Assembly (NCBI GenBank): GCA_041650715.1
Contig: JBAZKQ010000001.1
Span: forward strand, 134,945 to 198,944
Reading direction: 5' to 3'
DNA length: 64,000 nt
Source of the DNA: Patescibacteria group bacterium
GTDB taxonomy: Bacteria; Patescibacteriota; Patescibacteriia; Patescibacteriales; UBA12465
Shown here: positions 2,222 through 43,427 of the stretch, piece by piece
Layout: every line of letters starts with the position of its first letter
Position numbering within the stretch: the stretch's first letter is position 1
Notes under the pieces: generated by a model
Database searches by the model: none
The model's input: the letters and a program-made list of their open reading frames with translations, nothing else
Told to the model about the DNA's origin: nothing
Made by a program: the position numbers and the translations under genes

Positions 2222-3625
<1,404 letters not shown>

Positions 3626-3813: not shown

Positions 3814-3917
3814 AAAGTTGTTAATTTAGAATGCGAGCTATAAATATTATTTTTTAAAATTTTAATTTTGAAAAATATATATTTTAGCGAGCCCAGCTGC
3901 AAACTAACTATTAGTTT

Positions 3918-4364
3918 ATGTCTCAGAAGACAATAAAATTTGAAATTGTTACCCCCGAACGCACCGTTATGAAAACGGAGGCTTTACAGGTAACAGTACC
4001 GACCACAAGCGGCGAGATTACGATTCTTCCGGATCATATCCCCTTGGTTTCGATTTTAGCTCCCGGCGTTATTGAAGTTAAACGTAACGACAATGTAATC
4101 GAAATTATGGCCGTGTCCGGTGGTTTTATTGAAGTTTTAAAAGATAAGATTGTTATTTTAGCCGATTCAGCGGAACGCGCCGAAGAATTGGATGAAGAGC
4201 GGATTAAAGAAGCCCAGCAAAAGGCGATCGACTTAAAGAACACCGCTAAAGCGATTGATGATGTCGAATTTGCCGATGTCTCGGCGCGGCTCGAGAAGGA
4301 ACTCGCGCGTATGCGGGCCGTTAATAAGTGGCGCCGTTTGAAAAATATTGATCCTAATAAATAG
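3918..4364 (+). CDS. atpC: F1 ATP synthase epsilon subunit
   Basis: 148 aa. The N-terminal beta-sandwich pattern (KFEIVTPERTV...VTVPTTSGEITILPDHIPLVSILAPGVIEV) and a C-terminal helical hairpin are typical of epsilon. Confidence 0.9.
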   Translation: MSQKTIKFEIVTPERTVMKTEALQVTVPTTSGEITILPDHIPLVSILAPGVIEVKRNDNVIEIMAVSGGFIEVLKDKIVILADSAERAEELDEERIKEAQQKAIDLKNTAKAIDDVEFADVSARLEKELARMRAVNKWRRLKNIDPNK

Positions 4365-4419: not shown

Positions 4420-5268
4420 ATGTCAAACAAAATAGAAACACTAAACATGGAGACACAAATTATGGAGAAGGAAACGCTTACAAAGCAAGAAGAACAAATT
4501 CAAAAAGGCTGGGAAGCGTCTCGCCTGAATGAAGTCGTCAAACGCCTTAAAGCCAACGAAAATTTGCAAGAAATTATGAATTCTTTGCCTGGATTTCGTG
4601 AAGCTTTTACGGATTTAGATACGATTGATTGCTCTGATGGCCGCGTTTTGTCAGGTAAAAAAATCGGTATTGCCGGTAGTGGCTTATTATTATCTCCTGA
4701 AGAAAGATTGTTATTTATTGAACGCTTCAAAGGTAAGATAAAGGAAGTGACGACGCACCGTGATTGCGGAGCAGCGGCCATAAAATTTGCCGATTTAAAG
4801 ACTAAGTCACCGGACTTGATTCCGGCCGGTCTCGAAACGTCGGATGAATATGGTACCTATACTGGTCAAAAAATTGCTGAAGAACTGGGGGCTAAACATC
4901 GCTTTTTGGATATGCCAGAAATGGCGAGCGAATATCATAATGAGACGGCTATAGTGCTTGACGCGACCGCTCGTTTTGATTCGACGAACCTGGAAAAATT
5001 TCCTGCCCACTTTGTTTGTACCGGAGCCGGTTTGGGCTTCAGTCGTGAGTATATGAAGAGTGAGCTGGAAACCTTAGCTGGAATCGCTCTTGGCCACCAC
5101 GGTTTTGGGAAAGAACGTTTTAGTACTAATGACCCTTTCTATATTATCGTTGTCGGCAAGGATTCTTCGGAAATGGCCGCCTGGGAAAACGCCGCTACTG
5201 AAGTGGCCGCTAAGTTTGAGGGCCGAGTAGCCGTTAAAGGCTTCGTCAGTCCGGAGACCATGGAGTAA
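4420..5268 (+). CDS. Hypothetical protein with beta-carbonic-anhydrase-like Zn-ligand motifs
   Basis: 282-aa ORF followed by a terminator. Contains C71-S-D73-G-R75 and H113-R-D-C116-G-A-A, in the same order as the beta-CA CxDxR and HxxCG motifs. The rest is unrecognised. The true start could be M10 or M15. Confidence 0.6.
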   Translation: MSNKIETLNMETQIMEKETLTKQEEQIQKGWEASRLNEVVKRLKANENLQEIMNSLPGFREAFTDLDTIDCSDGRVLSGKKIGIAGSGLLLSPEERLLFIERFKGKIKEVTTHRDCGAAAIKFADLKTKSPDLIPAGLETSDEYGTYTGQKIAEELGAKHRFLDMPEMASEYHNETAIVLDATARFDSTNLEKFPAHFVCTGAGLGFSREYMKSELETLAGIALGHHGFGKERFSTNDPFYIIVVGKDSSEMAAWENAATEVAAKFEGRVAVKGFVSPETME

Positions 5269-7080: not shown

Positions 7081-7968
7081 ATGGCCTTAACCAAATTCGG
7101 TAAATATTTATTGCTTATTGGCGTTGTTATTTTGCTGGCCGTGGCGACCAAAGGGGTTTTATATTTGCGTGCTCTGAGACATCAGCCCGCCCCCGCCCCG
7201 GTCACCTTAAAAGCCGAAGAAACCTTAAAGATTATTGAGGGCTGGACGAGCCGCGATATCGCCGATTATTTACAAAAAAGCGGTATTTGGACCAGCACTG
7301 GTTTTTACGAAATTGCCGGCTACCCTTTGCGTGATTATCGGCAAACTAAAAATAAGGATAATGCTCAGCCAAAAGATTTTTCCGCTCAATTTAGTTTTTT
7401 AGCTGATAAACCAACTTATTTTGGTCTTGAGGGCTATCTATACCCGGATACCTATCGTGTTTATGCCAGTTCAACCGTGACGGAAATTATTGAAAAAATG
7501 CTGATTAATTTCGATGCTAAGCTGACGCCCCAGATGCGAGCCGACATCAAGGCACAGGGCCGAACAATCTATGAAGTGATTACGCTGGCCTCGCTGGTTG
7601 AGAAAGAAGCGCCAATCAACTATCAATCCGCCGAGAATAAGGACGCCCATATTATCGCCGGCATATTTTTAAACCGGATTGCTATCGGCCAGGCCCTGCA
7701 ATCGGACGCTACTCTCTCTTATATTTACGGTGACAATAAGCCGGCGCATAGCGGCGACGAACTTGATAGTACTTCTCCCTATAATACTTATAAATATCGC
7801 GGCATGCCGCCTGGTCCGATCTGTAATCCGGGGATAGTCGCTATTGAAGCAGCCATATACCCGGCAGAAACTAATTATAATTATTTTTTAACGACACCGG
7901 ACGGGCGAGTTGTTTATGCGCGGACATACGATGAACATCTAAATAATAAATATAAATATTTAAAATAA
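7081..7968 (+). CDS. mltG: Endolytic murein transglycosylase MltG (YceG-like)
   Basis: 295 aa. N-terminal TM helix, then LEGYLYPDTYRV, LASLVEKEA and YNTYKYRGMPPGPICNPG motifs of the YceG family. Confidence 0.9.
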   Translation: MALTKFGKYLLLIGVVILLAVATKGVLYLRALRHQPAPAPVTLKAEETLKIIEGWTSRDIADYLQKSGIWTSTGFYEIAGYPLRDYRQTKNKDNAQPKDFSAQFSFLADKPTYFGLEGYLYPDTYRVYASSTVTEIIEKMLINFDAKLTPQMRADIKAQGRTIYEVITLASLVEKEAPINYQSAENKDAHIIAGIFLNRIAIGQALQSDATLSYIYGDNKPAHSGDELDSTSPYNTYKYRGMPPGPICNPGIVAIEAAIYPAETNYNYFLTTPDGRVVYARTYDEHLNNKYKYLK

Positions 7969-37613: not shown

Positions 37614-37657
37614 TAGTCCCCATGGGAATCGCCCCCCCCGTTACCAGGATGAGAACC
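37614..37657 (-). repeat. Degenerate copy of the 3' half of tRNA-Glu (att-like direct repeat or tRNA remnant)
   Basis: tagtccccatgggaatcgccccccccgttaccaggatgagaacc compared with 41787-41829 tagtccctaggggaatcgaacccctgttaccaggatgagaacc. The 18-nt core is perfect (37640-37657 equals 41812-41829). The T-arm is disrupted by substitutions and one extra C. Confidence 0.7.
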
Positions 37658-37758
37658 GATAGGGCGGCATAAGCGAAGAAGAGGGCAAGAGGCGAGGCAT
37701 TATTCGAACTTTTTTATAATAAAATTGCTAATATTAAATTTTGTTATACAGTTTTGAT

Positions 37759-38523: not shown

Positions 38524-38708
38524 AACAAAAAATCGCTAAGATGGCGACTTTAATGTATCGGCGTGGAGGAGGGGATGAGATTTTTTAATTGCTCTTTAAC
38601 TTTTGGTTAACCATTTCACAAAAGTCCGGTGTAAACCTATTGTCTTGGCGAAGACCAGTGTATCTCGCTCGCCGACTGTTCGATTTCCATAGTTGTGAAT
38701 TGTTAACT

Positions 38709-38738
38709 AAAAAAGCCACGGCATTCGCCGGGCTTTTT
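38709..38738. terminator. Bidirectional intrinsic terminator downstream of the 312-aa gene
   Basis: aaaaagcc(a)cgg-cattcg-ccgggcttttt hairpin flanked by an A-run and a T-run. Confidence 0.55.
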
Positions 38739-38828
38739 AGTTATTGGCTTTAAAGTCTAGAATTTCTGAAAATTTTGATGGTATTATTGGGGAAATCGAG
38801 AAGTGGGCGGAAATTTTGAGATAAAAAT

Positions 38829-39767
38829 TTATTCAATAACCTTTATACAGAACGCGAACCTATGGTATATAACGTTTTTACCTTTAACAAATGCCTCAAT
38901 ATTATAGTTTCCTGATTTTAGAAAAGTCAAACTAATTTTATTTTTTAATTGATTTTCATGGGCTTGTACAATTTCGCTGTTAAGTCTAATAATTTGTTTA
39001 TCTTCCGTTGCATAAATTGAAAGATTGGTGGTCTTCTCGACTAAAAAGTCCTGCGAAAGAATAAGTCCTATCTCGACTTTTTCGGCCATAATATCACTGC
39101 TATTGTTTATGGAGACGGGGATATCATATTTTTTATTTACAGAAAAATCAAATGTTTCATCTTTTTTTAGATATTTGCCATAAAAAATTAATCCAATTTT
39201 TTCTTCCTTAATAAATAAATCACTAACACTGTTACCATTTTTGGTGGATATATCGGATAATAATGATATTACTTTTTCCTCATAATCTTTTTTTGTTTGG
39301 TTTATTGAACCGAATACCTCAATTAAGATTAAAATGCTTTTCCATAAAATATATATTCCTATAATAAAGGCTATCAAGCTTAATGCTAACAGTAATAATC
39401 TATATTCTATTGCAAAAATTATAAGCGTAGCCATTAATAAGATAAATGCGAAAAAAAAGGGAATAAATATTTTTACAAATAATTTGTCTGGCTTTAAATA
39501 ATTTATTTTAACTTCTGCAATTCTTATATTTTTCTTTAAAGTTTTTATCGTTTTTTGCAAACCAGCGTAATCTAAATTTTTTTCCTCCTCCATTTTTTTA
39601 GTTTCGTTCACAAGGTTTTGATCACTTTGTTTCTTTTCGTTTTCATATTTTTCCAGAAGAAATTTTGAACCTTCTGAAAATATAGATAAAGCAATCGCCA
39701 AAATTGGAAGAACAAAACTCATTATAGTCAATATAAATGAACCATAAAGTTGCAAAGCACTATCCAT
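38829..39767 (-). CDS. Hypothetical membrane protein (TM, coiled coil, 2 TM, beta-rich C-domain)
   Basis: 312-aa ORF with very AT-rich codon usage. Hydrophobic helices lie at roughly residues 10-30, 100-122 and 125-150. A charged coiled segment spans 35-95, and about 160 aa are C-terminal beta-rich. No recognisable motif. Confidence 0.65.
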   Translation of the reverse strand: MDSALQLYGSFILTIMSFVLPILAIALSIFSEGSKFLLEKYENEKKQSDQNLVNETKKMEEEKNLDYAGLQKTIKTLKKNIRIAEVKINYLKPDKLFVKIFIPFFFAFILLMATLIIFAIEYRLLLLALSLIAFIIGIYILWKSILILIEVFGSINQTKKDYEEKVISLLSDISTKNGNSVSDLFIKEEKIGLIFYGKYLKKDETFDFSVNKKYDIPVSINNSSDIMAEKVEIGLILSQDFLVEKTTNLSIYATEDKQIIRLNSEIVQAHENQLKNKISLTFLKSGNYNIEAFVKGKNVIYHRFAFCIKVIE

Positions 39768-41096: not shown

Positions 41097-41124
41097 ATTT
41101 TAATAGTTATCTTATAACTTTATT

Positions 41125-41153
41125 AGTTTATCAAATTAAAAGATGTATGTCAA
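41125..41153 (-). promoter_or_regulatory. Sigma70-like promoter for the 125-aa/NYN cassette (TTGACA-N17-TAAACT)
   Basis: On the minus strand, TTGACA corresponds to plus-strand tgtcaa at 41148-41153. A 17-nt spacer follows, then TAAACT (plus-strand agttta at 41125-41130). About 30 nt upstream of the ATG at 41096. Confidence 0.5.
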
Positions 41154-41504
41154 ATGGAGATTAACCATATATGAAAAATAATGAAATATGTTGAAAAGTT
41201 ATATATTATTAGCTAAATTGTAATTTAAGTAAATGTTATCTTTGTTTTATAAAGTTATCCACAATATGCGTTATTAAGGATAATTTTGATTATTTACTAA
41301 TAAAATCCGCCTCTTGATTCACCCCCTATTTTCTGCCATTACGCTCTCATAGACTTATTAATAAACATAATAAGGCAGGAAGATAAAACATAGCTACGGC
41401 TAGTCAGATTACGGACAATAATTTAAAAAAATGCAGTCTTTAAATAATATAATAAATATAAGCAAAGTCTAAATTTTTGCCAACTCAACTATAAACACGA
41501 GCAA

Positions 41505-41750
41505 TATATCCGGACGGATGGCTTGTGTTTTTTTGTTTGGCCGAGTTGCCCCTCTTGAGGTTGGCCTTGCCATGTATTTCTGAACAACCTCGCCTCACTC
41601 GCGGACCAGTCCGCTCGTTCGTTGTCGCGGTCAGCGTCCGAAGCTCCCCCGGAGCTTCGTCCGACGCTCGCCACGCCTGCGTCCCGCTGGCCGCAGGCTA
41701 AGCTCGCTTCTGACCTGTTCGATTCCCCTCGGCTAACGCCGTCTAATTAA
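41505..41750. other. GC-rich, hairpin-dense non-coding element (candidate structured RNA; strand unresolved)
   Basis: There is an abrupt rise in G+C relative to the AT-rich surroundings. Helices found: 41557-63/41585-91 (gaggttg/caacctc), 41601-05/41610-14, 41634-47/41651-67 (14 bp with a 3-nt bulge), and 41675-81/41692-98 (gcctgcg/cgcaggc). The enclosing pair is 41539-45/41728-34. No credible ORF. Confidence 0.4.
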
Positions 41751-41780
41751 AAAATGCCCAGCTAACGCTGAGCACTTTTT
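41749..41780 (-). terminator. Intrinsic terminator downstream of tRNA-Glu (bidirectional geometry)
   Basis: tgcccagc-taac-gctgagca hairpin flanked by aaaaaa and ttttt. The single mismatch becomes a G-U pair only on the minus strand. Confidence 0.65.
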
Positions 41781-41786
41781 AATTAG

Positions 41787-41858
41787 TAGTCCCTAGGGGA
41801 ATCGAACCCCTGTTACCAGGATGAGAACCTGGCGTCCTAACCGTTAGACGAAGGGACC
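41787..41858 (-). tRNA. tRNA-Glu (anticodon CTC), CCA not encoded
   Basis: Reverse complement folds as GGTCCCT TC GTCT AACGGTTA GGAC G CCAGG TTCTCAT CCTGG TAAC AGGGG TTCGATT CCCCT AGGGACT A. 72 nt. Confidence 0.9.
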
Positions 41859-42776
41859 ATTTTTATGGCCGCGGAGGAATTCTTCACTCGCCATAATTTT
41901 CTTGCCTTCAAGTTGTAATTTTAGTATAAGGAGAGATTCTTGTCCACACTGTACGGCCAACTGGCCTTCGTGTAAAAAAGTGGCGCCGGCGGCATGGGTG
42001 TTTATATTTAAAACTTCGCCAGAGACAGCGATAATTTTTAGGGTTTTTCCGCCGGATACGGTGAAAGTCCCCGGCCAGGGATTATAAGCGCGCACCATGC
42101 GCTCGATTTCGACCGCCGATTTCGTCCAGTCAATTTTACCGTCCTCCTTGCTTAAGGTCTTTATATAACTTGCCTGGCTTTCATCTTGACTCTGGGGGAT
42201 TATTTTACCGGCGATAAAATCTTCCAAGGTTGGAATTAATATTTCGGCACCCAGCGCGGATAATTTATCGTGTACGTTTTCTAAACTTTCCGTGCCCGCT
42301 AATTTTATCTTAGCTTGCCGTAGAATCGGTCCGGTGTCAAGGCCGGCCTCCATGCGCATAATTGTGACGCCGGTTTCTTTATCGCCATTTAAAATCGGCG
42401 CGTTTAAGACTGCCGCGCCTCGATATTTAGGCAGGAGGGAAGCATGGACATTAACGCAGCCATAGGTCGGAATATCTAAAATGCTTTGGGGGATTATTTT
42501 GCCATAAGCAATCACCACAATTAAATCCGGTTGGAGATTTTTGAGGTTTTCTAACTCATCTTTAAGTTTAGTCGGTTGGAATATTGCTAAATTATTTTCC
42601 AGTGCCAATTTTTTTATAGGCGACGGGGTAAGGACCTGGTTGCGTCCGACTGGCTTGTCCGGCTGCGTAAAAACACCGACGATTTCAAAAATATCGCTGC
42701 TAATGAGTCGTGAGAGGCCGGGCAAAGCGAACTCCGGGGTGCCCATAAATATTACTTTGTATCTTTTTCTTTCCAT
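41844..42776 (-). CDS. fmt: Methionyl-tRNA formyltransferase
   Basis: KVIFMGTPEFALPGL...NVHASLLPKYRGAAVLNAPILNGD. The start is set at the internal Met (cat at 42774-42776), giving 310 aa. The stop codon lies 15 nt inside the 5' end of tRNA-Glu. Confidence 0.92.
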   Translation of the reverse strand: MERKRYKVIFMGTPEFALPGLSRLISSDIFEIVGVFTQPDKPVGRNQVLTPSPIKKLALENNLAIFQPTKLKDELENLKNLQPDLIVVIAYGKIIPQSILDIPTYGCVNVHASLLPKYRGAAVLNAPILNGDKETGVTIMRMEAGLDTGPILRQAKIKLAGTESLENVHDKLSALGAEILIPTLEDFIAGKIIPQSQDESQASYIKTLSKEDGKIDWTKSAVEIERMVRAYNPWPGTFTVSGGKTLKIIAVSGEVLNINTHAAGATFLHEGQLAVQCGQESLLILKLQLEGKKIMASEEFLRGHKNGPFV

Positions 42777-42791
42777 GTTATCATTATAAGT

Positions 42792-43427
42792 ATGTTTATC
42801 GTATTTATCAATTGGGTGCTTGGCATAACGAGCGGTCTCGGCTACGGGGGTGTTTTTATTTTGATGGCGGTTGAAAGCTCTTTTTTGCCTTTTCCGTCGG
42901 AATTGGCTATCCCGCCGGCCGCTTATCTCGCGAGTCAAGGGAAGATGGATGTTTTTTTGATAATTGCAATCGGCACATTGGGGAGCTTAGTCGGGGCACT
43001 GGTAAATTATTATTTAGCGCTGTGGCTCGGGCGTCCTCTCGTTTACCGTTTACTCGAAACGCGGGCCGCTCGCTTTTTGCGTTTAAAAAAAAGCGATCTG
43101 GAAAGAGCCGAGACGCTGTTTTTAAAAAATTCCCGTCAGGCGACTTTTGTTGGTCGTCTCATACCGGTGGTTCGCCAATTGATTTCTATTCCGGCCGGTT
43201 TTACAAAAATGCCCATTATCCCCTTTGTGGCCTTAACGACCTTGGGTTCATTGCTCTGGGTGAGCGTTTTGGCCGCTCTCGGTTATATTTTAGGTGCGAA
43301 TCAGGACTTACTGGTGCAATATTATCATGAAATTCAAAGCGCCCTCTTATTATTGGGAGCGATTTGGTTATTGCGCTTTATCTTAAAGAAACGCCAAAAA
43401 TATTTAAAGAAAAAACGCCAAGCTTAA
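42792..43427 (+). CDS. DedA family membrane protein
   Basis: 211 aa. The ESSFLPFPSE and FVGRLIPVVRQLISIPAG motifs are typical of DedA/SNARE-associated proteins. Confidence 0.85.
   Translation: MFIVFINWVLGITSGLGYGGVFILMAVESSFLPFPSELAIPPAAYLASQGKMDVFLIIAIGTLGSLVGALVNYYLALWLGRPLVYRLLETRAARFLRLKKSDLERAETLFLKNSRQATFVGRLIPVVRQLISIPAGFTKMPIIPFVALTTLGSLLWVSVLAALGYILGANQDLLVQYYHEIQSALLLLGAIWLLRFILKKRQKYLKKKRQA

Follow-up and report, generated by a model that had tools for sequence, protein, structure and literature searches.

The locus downstream of tRNA-Glu(CUC)

The window, 64,000 nucleotides of a contig from a Patescibacteria group bacterium (JBAZKQ010000001.1), contains an intact tRNA-Glu(CUC) gene on the minus strand (41786..41858; ARAGORN and the Rfam tRNA model, 62.5 bits), with fmt and def upstream of it. 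This gene is the anchor of the element described here. An A/T-flanked hairpin (41743..41786), an inverted repeat whose 20-nt arms are 90% complementary, separates the tRNA-Glu 3' end from the element and is terminator-like in both directions. It is the terminator-like hairpin of the original prediction, and a counterpart is seen in nearly all copies of the element.

Next in the direction of the tRNA is a small GC hairpin, CGGC-UAAC-GCCG (41730..41741). It covaries with that of a related locus, L005 (CGAC-UAAC-GUCG), and is identical in L157 and L131; variable small hairpins occupy the same slot in other copies. It is followed by the anti-T-arm (41717..41729, minus strand), in which the T loop of tRNA-Glu and the 3' strand of its T stem are copied in inverted orientation. 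Its plus-strand letters are GTTCGATTCCCCT, and its minus strand is complementary to tRNA-Glu positions 53-65. It lies in a 16-nt inverted repeat with 41792-41807 (94% complementary).

The core of the element (41590..41716, minus strand) is defined by an nhmmer family match, covariation and G.A counts. Read 5' to 3' on the minus strand it consists of the 5' strand of a long-range helix (P1, 41629-41634 with 41710-41715), hairpins H3 (41666-41707) and H2 (41635-41663), the 3' strand of P1, a GACAA linker and hairpin H1 (41594-41621), all four helices being placed from 47 homologues. This set replaces the four consecutive helices originally drawn. The proposed distal pairing of ggccgag (41539-45) with ctcggct (41728-34) was also not upheld: its left arm is outside the family, which starts at about 41590, and its right arm is in the small hairpin at 41730-41741.

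The predicted abrupt step in composition is real, with a GC content of 0.61 at 41500-41799 compared with 0.19-0.31 at 41100-41499 and 0.416 for the whole window. The region is also hairpin-dense, as had been noticed from its letters (folding energy against shuffled sequences, z = -4.7 for the plus and -6.1 for the minus strand). It is not a single element of about 240 bp. Two separate elements are present: an AT-rich conserved segment (41303-41545), which also occurs in serine-recombinase/Rep integrative elements, and the structured element (41590-41741), so that 41505-41589 does not belong to the latter. The linker at 41546..41589 has a local hairpin (GAGGTTG 41557-63 with CAACCTC 41585-91) and no homologue in any locus. 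It is outside the family and sits in the slot where other copies have a 17-nt duplicate of the tRNA tail. The two local ORFs have no Pfam match.

A displaced 47-nt copy of tRNA-Glu, from the anticodon stem to the 3' end, is found at 37614..37660 (minus strand). It marks the far end of a 4.1-kb islet with genes for an MTase, a 312-aa protein, an NYN nuclease and a 125-aa protein. In the window this fragment takes the place of the 17-nt duplicate that other copies have immediately behind the core and that the window copy lacks. The islet also contains the truncated remnant of a second copy (38652..38740, minus strand; nhmmer E = 0.03, HMM positions 129-191), which retains an anti-T-arm-like GTTCGATTTCC, the adjoining P1/AGCGAG part and its own terminator hairpin, an inverted repeat.

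A family of copies at tRNA genes

Judged from its sequence, 41590-41741 is one copy of a multi-copy structured family in CPR/Patescibacteria-type genomes. A 19-mer from H2 retrieved 75 metagenome loci, and copies were then confirmed by nhmmer, so the search for homologues that had been proposed as a check did find the element elsewhere. About 66 copies were found, in 57 metagenome loci and one genome; the family match to the window copy covers 41592-41754 (E = 6e-35). The core is about 150 nt (141-150 nt across copies, with length differences that are not multiples of three) and the whole unit is about 212 nt. Core modules are mosaic among copies. Many of the 19-mer matches are at contig ends, and in a Logan assembly of the same strain the element is flanked by a break on each side. 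The H2 hairpin sequence also occurs in CPR tRNA genes, within introns that are probably divergent members of group I.

The element family is undescribed and matches no known RNA family. With Rfam 15, the window copy had no family match at the gathering threshold or at E ≤ 10, in line with the earlier failure to recognize tmRNA, RNase P, SRP or 6S signatures, and in seven other copy-bearing loci only tRNAs were found. Full-text searches of the literature, including one with the hairpin sequence, yielded no account of the element. The T-loop-like end and a possible G3:U70 register had suggested a tmRNA. This reading was rejected: copies do not conserve the proposed acceptor pairing, whose 5' partner is outside the family, and the T-loop-like end copies the neighbouring tRNA in inverted orientation. 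ARAGORN called no tmRNA in the window; the related loci L146, L151 and L198 do contain genuine tmRNAs, at other places. A phage or plasmid origin was also rejected, the H2 19-mer having no exact match in IMG/VR and BLAST of phage and plasmid collections giving no match. A 15-mer from the anti-T-arm gave only chance-level matches in IMG/VR.

In all 33 loci with a called tRNA, a copy adjoins the tRNA 3' end and, read in the plus sense, is convergent with the tRNA. The occupied tRNAs are those for Glu, Gln, Ser, Gly, Ala, His and Cys, and nearly identical cores are found at these seven different species. In the tRNA direction, the unit runs from the tRNA 3' end through the A/T-flanked hairpin, the small variable hairpin and the anti-T-arm (positions 53 to about 65) to the core (P1, H3, H2, H1), a direct duplicate of tRNA positions 58-74 and a second terminator-like hairpin. 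The 17-nt duplicate is located about 210-216 nt downstream in 26 of the 33 loci; it begins at position 58 in 20 of 25 and finishes at the tRNA end in 17 of 25. A retro-copy of mature tRNA was rejected as its source since the duplicate lacks CCA and, in L005, runs 20 nt past the tRNA into the genomic flank. Across the family the anti-T-arm matches its cognate tRNA over a median of 10 nt and up to 15 nt (none of 2000 permutations reached the observed match), although in L136, L153 and L193 it derives from a tRNA other than the neighbour. The anti-T-arm and the duplicate, both tRNA-derived, are mutually complementary over 6-10 nt.

Occupation of a given site varies. Synteny of fmt and tRNA-Glu is kept in L003-L006. 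In L005 (fmt 60% identical) direct repeats of 39 nt bracket the element, which immediately follows tRNA-Glu; at the same locus the sites of L003, L004 and L006 are empty. Copies also form tandem arrays (three in L160, four in L142, and others in L149 and L150) and bound small accessory cargo cassettes of one to three genes.

Predicted fold and probable strand

The fold predicted from the homologues is a three-way junction, in which P1 closes H3 and H2, plus the 3' hairpin H1. RNAalifold gave compensatory changes in 20 of 26 pairs; for the named structure they were seen in 26 of 34 tested base pairs. Paired cells made up 87.4% of the named structure compared with 76.4% in shuffles, and there were 189 double-change cells compared with 57; neither value was reached in 500 shuffles. 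Slid-structure controls were 31-41% paired. The structure of the element is thus under purifying selection.

Tandem G.A/A.G pairs are located near the base of H1, H2 and H3. All 47 copies have G25.A70 and A26.G69, with covarying pairs on either side, and in the H2 loop G.A is swapped for A.G. As they form symmetric 2x2 internal loops without the three-nucleotide bulge, a kink-turn was rejected. One H1 pair is U.G 24 times and C-G 11 times, and most H3 tips have a GGAA loop.

The functional strand is probably that of the tRNA sense, the minus strand of the window. It is favoured by the tandem G.A pairs, the G.U counts and the folding energy, the minus-sense fold being more stable in all 47 copies (mean 9 kcal/mol). 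When the plus strand is read, the conserved internal loops become U.C/C.U and the majority H1 pair becomes A.C. The family data thus reverse the weak plus-strand preference that had been drawn from two G-U pairs. A sigma-70 scan gave no convincing promoter next to the core on either strand; -10-like hexamers cluster loosely 16-24 nt upstream of it. The same helices could form in single-stranded DNA.

Neighbouring proteins

In an all-against-all clustering of 472 flanking ORFs, the tRNA side showed housekeeping synteny and nothing else, and the cargo side had no recurrent protein family. Recombinases, transposases and reverse transcriptases are not recurrent among the ORFs flanking copies. Large serine recombinases are found in only three loci, at varying positions; several copy-bearing loci have HUH Rep and large serine recombinase genes. 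In tblastn searches with the NYN protein and three other islet proteins, one weak MTase match was the only match in element-bearing loci. The element therefore has no specific tie to the NYN nuclease next to it. The prediction of a novel structured RNA belonging to the islet is upheld in so far as the element is conserved, structured, non-coding and outside known RNA families. It is not islet-specific, as shown by homologues at many tRNA genes with unrelated or no cargo.

A proposed model for insertion at tRNA genes

The element is rather likely to be a non-autonomous, structured unit that targets tRNA genes and is mobilized in trans. The unit would insert into the tRNA T loop or recombine with it, the junction being between positions 57 and 58, and would so restore an intact tRNA and displace the old 3' end. 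Repeated events would give arrays with the newest unit next to the tRNA. Because the units encode no protein, the work would be done by one encoded elsewhere. The conserved fold, with its three G.A-motif hairpins, may be the recognition scaffold, most likely made as RNA in the tRNA direction (window minus strand), and the anti-T-arm and tRNA-tail copy may supply pairing to the target. The window copy would have lost its own 17-nt duplicate and would now abut a decayed serine-recombinase/Rep integrative element, an earlier entrant into tRNA-Glu.

Near-identical cores at different tRNAs are not simply explained by a fixed attachment site; they call for target-templated flanks or for gene conversion between copies. 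A more speculative and rather unlikely possibility is that insertion is programmed by RNA and not by the DNA specificity of a protein. In a tRNA-sense RNA, the anti-T-arm (53 to about 67), spanning the 57/58 junction like an internal guide sequence, and the 58-74 copy would pair with both strands or sides of the target T-arm. The G.A hairpins would recruit an enzyme acting in trans, or the RNA would itself be catalytic. The presence of H2 in divergent CPR tRNA group I introns would then mean a common cofactor or ancestry. The anti-T-arms from the wrong tRNA in L136, L153 and L193 argue against a strict guide function.

The fold may alternatively act in single-stranded or cruciform DNA, as a recombination site of the attC or IS200/IS605-REP kind at which a recombinase or HUH enzyme supplied in trans stacks cassettes at tRNA genes, with no need for RNA. 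Sheared G.A pairs form in DNA too. The one- to three-gene cassettes bounded by copies, the arrays next to a single anchor, the long quasi-palindrome that the terminator region makes with the tRNA T arm, the lack of an evident promoter and the HUH Rep and large serine recombinase genes in several loci all fit. However, the three-way junction, conserved single-stranded joiners, GNRA-type loops and U.G/C-G alternation are typical of RNA, no integrase or HUH gene is consistently adjacent, and the units are bracketed by terminator-like hairpins, as in a small transcription unit. Overall, a DNA site is an unlikely explanation, if one to be taken seriously.

It is doubtful that the element is instead a non-mobile host small RNA or tRNA 3' trailer, co-transcribed with the tRNA or made just after it and acting on tRNA maturation, stability or read-through, the duplicate and the anti-T-arm having originated in local duplication and keeping their match to the tRNA through quasi-palindrome correction or gene conversion. 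A trailer would account for the constant position and orientation relative to tRNAs, the match of the anti-T-arm to the neighbouring tRNA and the selection on structure, and the mosaic core modules do suggest gene conversion among copies. It would not account for presence and absence at the same site among close relatives, for tandem arrays and truncated remnants or for the repeat-typical assembly breaks, and a terminator-like hairpin lies between tRNA and element.

One reading in the original prediction was a small RNA owned by the islet, a partner or decoy of the NYN nuclease, here read on the plus strand and convergent with tRNA-Glu. The NYN gene is 0.9 kb away, the plus strand ends at the shared hairpin with a T run and, in the plus-strand reading, the small hairpin has UNCG loops (UUCG or UACG) in a few copies. 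Nevertheless, such a role is very improbable and largely refuted by the family context: homologues have no recurrent protein family beside them, NYN included, and share no protein cluster on the cargo side, the islet proteins are absent from other element loci by tblastn (bar the weak MTase match), and the plus strand has both the U.C/C.U loops with the A.C pair and the weaker fold in 47 of 47 copies. The remaining suggestion, a fossil of higher-GC foreign DNA or a protein-gene fragment with hairpins due to chance composition, can be dismissed despite the GC step and Arg/Ser/Gly-rich ORFs on both strands, given the 66 homologous copies, the compensatory changes found in all four helices (26 of 34 pairs), core lengths of 141-150 nt with non-triplet differences, and no match in Pfam or in phage or plasmid collections.

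Significance

Tiny CPR/Patescibacteria genomes keep this element in many copies, with a structure clearly under selection, at the 3' ends of essential tRNA genes. Should it serve an accretion system as its cis-acting module, it would explain how such reduced genomes gather and exchange small accessory and defence-type cassettes at tRNA genes without an integrase for each island. The repeated breaks of assemblies at tRNA genes in CPR metagenome bins are explained by it as well. To our knowledge, few non-coding RNAs are known in the CPR lineage, and the element, with a predicted three-way junction and three tandem-G.A hairpins, is a well-supported candidate structured RNA. If the anti-T-arm directs targeting, this would be a compact, naturally retargetable system of RNA-directed insertion.

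Comparison with known systems

Integron attC sites are, like the element, structured sites that separate promoter-less or small cassettes in an array at a fixed anchor. However, an attC site is one imperfect hairpin (57-141 nt) that has extrahelical bases and R and L boxes and lies next to intI/attI, whereas the element is anchored at a tRNA gene, has a three-way junction and an extra hairpin, and lacks IntI. An attC site was rejected on these grounds, with no integron integrase seen among neighbouring ORFs (Pfam on selected ORFs).

IS110 bridge RNA, the omega RNA of IscB/TnpB and the group I guide resemble the element in combining a scaffold of 150-200 nt with a short target-complementary segment. 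The anti-T-arm, which spans the 57/58 junction, has the polarity of the group I guide: its first part pairs to the 3' side and its second part to the 5' side. In contrast to bridge and omega RNAs, the element has no adjacent recombinase or nuclease gene, and both were rejected as no cognate ORF was present among the adjacent ORFs. There is no Rfam match to HEARO or to a group I model, and the guide-like match is imperfect in some copies. A group I intron was rejected although the guide-like polarity fits. There is no U.G at the would-be splice site (the junction follows G57, with Watson-Crick pairs only), no terminal G (the last bases are GGA, GAT or ATA) and no P3/P7 pseudoknot, no nucleotides being available for a P7 strand between H2 and the 3' strand of P1. 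RF00028 had no match to the element, which by sequence models alone is not decisive; divergent Patescibacteria introns can escape RF00028 (PMC13011429).

REP/REPIN-RAYT repeats, IS200/IS605-derived PATEs and MITEs such as Correia and ERIC are also short, GC-rich, hairpin-rich, multi-copy, assembly-breaking and non-autonomous. Like the element, they are often just after genes, next to terminators. They are simple hairpins or have terminal inverted repeats, with target duplications of 0-10 bp and no tRNA specificity. The element differs in its long-range helix closing a multi-helix junction, its strict association with tRNAs and its 17-nt duplicate of tRNA 58-74, which is tRNA-derived, fixed in extent and longer than any classical target duplication.

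tRNA genomic islands (Islander-type and tycheposon-like arrays) and integrase-less CIMEs have an intact tRNA with a displaced 3' copy at the other end, an arrangement also seen here (26 of 33 loci). The T-loop boundary is a classical integrase sublocation, and the tandem arrays with tRNA fragments between units and accessory cargo are likewise shared. Unlike such islands, the element is a unit of only about 212 nt, with no ORF and thus no integrase or other gene of its own. Its interior is a conserved three-way-junction fold under structural selection, and to the tRNA-island plan it adds an inverted copy of the T-arm and near-identical cores at seven tRNA species.

A GC-rich repeat beside tRNA-Glu

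The GC content of 41500-41799 is 0.61, compared with 0.19-0.31 in the preceding 400 nt and 0.416 in the whole window, bearing out the abrupt rise on which the original prediction rested. Hairpin density was likewise confirmed, as both strands beat shuffled controls on folding (z = -6.1 for the minus and -4.7 for the plus strand). The terminator-like hairpin proposed at the element's end is present at 41743-41786, with 20-nt arms, between the GC-rich stretch and the tRNA-Glu(CUC) gene (41786-41858, minus strand), which follows def and fmt. A scan of the window with Rfam 15 returned tRNAs only, at gathering thresholds and at E <= 10, in keeping with the earlier failure to match the element to tmRNA, RNase P, SRP or 6S signatures, and Pfam gave no match for the two local ORFs. 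An inverted-repeat search also revealed an inverted copy of the tRNA-Glu T arm at 41717-41732 (GTTCGATTCCCCTCGG, repeat I18), which had been overlooked. The mechanically called fmt ORF (41844-42938, minus strand) carries a 64-residue Arg/Lys-rich N-terminal extension; the source assembly calls fmt as 300 aa (41844-42746), and its final codons share 15 nt with the tRNA-Glu gene.

Searching the metagenome collection for the 19-mer of the central hairpin yielded 75 exact matches, where only a few are expected by chance. The profile built from these matches found 66 confident copies at 57 metagenome loci (designated by L numbers) and, in the window, a single full copy (41592-41754). Several contigs carry two to four copies, many matches fall at the ends of contigs, and another assembly of the same strain breaks on either side of the element; it therefore behaves as a repeat. 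Between contigs L201 (SRR8542065_174860) and L002 (SRR8542065_221300), one of which ends at the end of fmt while the other begins near window position 41471, the assembly gap swallows tRNA-Glu and the GC element, which fits this repeat nature. There was no exact 19-mer match in IMG/VR, and BLAST of the element against phage and plasmid collections gave nothing. As homologues were gathered with one exact 19-mer, the diversity of the family is under-sampled. It is indeed broader than the 19-mer set, since diverged units starting GGGATGAGAACA(A/G)G lie farther out in arrays (L129, ~4130; L142, 4851-5045 and 6292-6468; L166).

Association with tRNA 3' ends

The element sits at tRNA 3' ends, with its boundary at positions 57/58 and the tRNA tail duplicated. 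In 33 of 33 loci with a called tRNA gene, a copy lies just past the tRNA 3' end and its hairpin, and all 33 are convergent with the tRNA in the sense first drawn. Occupied tRNAs are Glu(CUC/UUC), Gln, Ser (three anticodons), Gly (two), Ala, His and Cys. In 26/33 loci the final 17 nt of the same tRNA reappear 210-216 nt farther on, immediately after the core. Among 25 loci, this duplicate begins at tRNA position 58 in 20 and stops where the annotated tRNA stops in 17.

The element's tRNA-proximal end repeats, in inverted form, the T loop and T-stem 3' strand of the neighbouring tRNA; this anti-T-arm matches its target. The identical run against the cognate tRNA has a median of 10 nt (maximum 15), against 6 for non-cognate pairs, and the observed match was reached in none of 2000 permutations. 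Even unusual T loops (TTCAATT, TTCAAGT, TCCGATT and TTCGACT) are mirrored. A few copies bear the anti-T-arm of another tRNA (those of L136 and L153 are tRNA-Ser-like), so this segment is able to move with the unit. In L132, the intact tRNA-His (712-783) has CCCAG as its T-stem 3' strand and the duplicate after its element has CCCGA. The latter is the sequence of the L181 tRNA-His (7821-7892), and the L132 duplicate thus keeps another allele, ancestral or donor.

A fold under selection on one strand

For 47 distinct copies RNAalifold predicts one long-range helix (P1) and three hairpins (the 5' H1, the central H2 and the variable H3), with compensatory changes in 20 of 26 pairs. On the tRNA-sense alignment the named 34-pair structure is 87.4% paired (76.4% in column shuffles), with 189 double-change cells (57) and a covariation score of 0.328 (0.128); none of 500 shuffles attained any of these three values, and sliding the partners by 1-3 columns reduced pairing to 31-41%. 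P1 occurs as GGUUGG/CCAACC, GGUCAG/CUGACC (window), GGAUUG/CAAUCC and AACUUG/CAAGUU, and copies lacking the 19-mer rebuild H2 as AAUAUGCC/GGCAUAUU and AAGCAUCC/GGAUGCUU. H1 is only 69% paired because H1, like the interior of H3, aligns imperfectly across subfamilies. Of the four helices drawn originally, the 14-bp bulged one survives in part as H2; the others, and the distal pairing ggccgag/ctcggct, do not fit the family structure. The same 19-nt hairpin, GAAGCUCC-GGG-GGAGCUUC, also turns up between tRNA halves, in another conserved context unrelated to the first (L137, ~3842-4200; L171, ~2850-3150; L173, L190 and L191). These are probably divergent group I introns, which Rfam did not detect. 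In L137 the tRNA 5' half is at 3842-3878 and the 3' half ~100 nt downstream of the hairpin.

Selection on this fold acts on one strand, and four signals favour the tRNA-sense strand (window minus) as the functional one. The core fold is more stable in this sense in 47/47 copies, by a mean of 9 kcal/mol. The symmetric 2x2 loop near the base of each hairpin is G.A/A.G in tRNA sense and would be U.C/C.U on the plus strand. In H3 both positions are invariant in 47/47 copies, with covarying Watson-Crick pairs on either side, and in H2 G.A is swapped for A.G (33/10 and 36/7), the only four exceptions being purine-purine. At one pair of H1, 24 copies have U.G and 11 have C-G; a plus-strand reading would turn the majority into an A.C mismatch. 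Counting G.U cells gives at least 58 in tRNA sense against 11 in plus sense, so that the weak plus-strand preference once drawn from two G-U pairs is reversed. In tRNA sense H3 tips are mostly GGAA tetraloops, the core is 65% purine, and an A-run, hairpin and T-run follow the tRNA-tail duplicate in each unit. A promoter search found nothing convincing, so transcription of the element is presumed.

Arrays and cargo

Units accrete into arrays. In L160, three units lie beyond tRNA-Gln, and a 125-aa ORF cassette separates the second from the third; four units in L142 separate a PEP-utiliser-domain gene, a small gene and an inositol-monophosphatase-like gene; and two in L150 surround three genes, DUF3800 among them. 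In the arrays read, cargo genes have the same orientation as the tRNA. When 472 flanking ORFs were clustered, no family recurred on the cargo side, with neither an integrase nor an NYN gene among them, and the four islet proteins of the window are absent from other loci, one weak MTase match excepted. The proximity of NYN is therefore an accident of the window locus, and the proposal that the element is an NYN partner or decoy is not supported.

In tRNA-Gln arrays the motif AAAGTTCCAAG(T)AT recurs at each end of cargo cassettes (L142, 5095 and 6014; L160, 8027 and 8526; L193, 1000; flanks of L177, L180 and L139). Its distal occurrence continues into a foreign tRNA-like tail, ATCCCAA(A/C)CTCCGAGC, and the motif may serve the cassettes themselves as an attachment site.

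History of the tRNA-Glu site

By fmt, the closest labelled relatives are small-genome Patescibacteria-type assemblies (71% identity to an 896-kb chromosome and 55% to a Candidatus Buchananbacteria MAG). The fmt-tRNA-Glu synteny is retained in four relatives (L003, L004, L005 and L006). No GC-rich element follows tRNA-Glu in L003, L004 or L006; L005 has a clear homologue, between 39-nt direct repeats of the tRNA-Glu 3' end and flank. Homology of the window to L005 begins at ~41590 and takes in a 30-mer around the central hairpin that is identical in both, and the small hairpin by the terminator covaries (CGGC/GCCG in the window, CGAC/GUCG in L005).

A separate AT-rich conserved non-coding segment (41303-41545, plus strand) ends in a palindromic terminator-like hairpin (41493-41530) and is 76-84% identical to segments of L188 (103-340) and L004 (7943-8072). 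There it lies upstream of genes for Rep (REP_ORF2-G2P) and a large serine recombinase, and from this position it may be a control or origin region of these small integrative elements. The 3' end of the recombinase ORF overlaps that of tRNA-Glu in L188 (1757-3280; tRNA 3242-3314) and L004 (4982-6586; tRNA 4948-5020). Large serine recombinase ORFs extend 38 nt into the tRNA gene 3' end or its duplicate, which suggests that the attachment site of these elements overlaps the recombinase gene end. In L178 (recombinase 321-1838) the order is tRNA-Ser, GC element, duplicate, serine recombinase and Rep.

At the far end of the 4.1-kb islet, a degenerate 47-nt copy of the tRNA-Glu 3' part (37614-37660, ~37/44 identical) precedes a 40-nt GC-rich stretch (37661-37700) and then a AAAAAAGTTCGAATAAT motif. 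Inside the islet the GC element is present a second time, in truncated form and with a terminator of its own (38652-38740), adjoined by a ~90-nt conserved sequence, TAGTAGTCCTAAAGTCTGAAATTTCTCAAAATTTTGATGGGATTATTGGGGAAATTGAGAAATGGGCGG (38745-38833). This sequence also adjoins elements in six loci (L155, L131, L128, L152, L186 and L006), occupying the place of the tRNA. Likely a recombinase/Rep element entered tRNA-Glu first, and the GC element was inserted afterwards, between that element and the tRNA; a subsequent deletion would have taken the 17-nt duplicate, recombinase and Rep, leaving the core abutting the 41546-41589 linker.

Mechanism and comparison with known systems

Units probably recombine with the T loop or insert there, which would regenerate the tRNA, and their mover would be a protein encoded elsewhere. 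The fold is probably the recognition scaffold for this mobilising protein, acting most likely as RNA. Different tRNAs have nearly identical cores beside them (Ser in L129, Gln in L130, Glu in L144); either the target serves as template for the flanks, or gene conversion homogenises the cores. The 5' and H3 modules occur in mosaic combinations, which is consistent with gene conversion.

Quasi-palindrome correction, an established mechanism, could keep the anti-T-arm matched against the adjacent T arm with no need for a guide function. Alternatively the anti-T-arm may be an internal guide across the 57/58 junction; that the element represents a new type of RNA-directed targeting unit seems rather unlikely. 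The polarity of the anti-T-arm is like that of a group I guide sequence, but the element fails the defining features of group I introns.

The element combines a covarying three-way-junction core with three tandem-G.A hairpins, the 58-74 duplicate and a target-matched inverted T arm. A full-text literature search found no description of it, nor these three features described together, and Rfam 15 holds no model for it. Among known systems, it behaves as a miniature, gene-less version of tRNA-integrated islands, and it also resembles trans-mobilised structured repeats.
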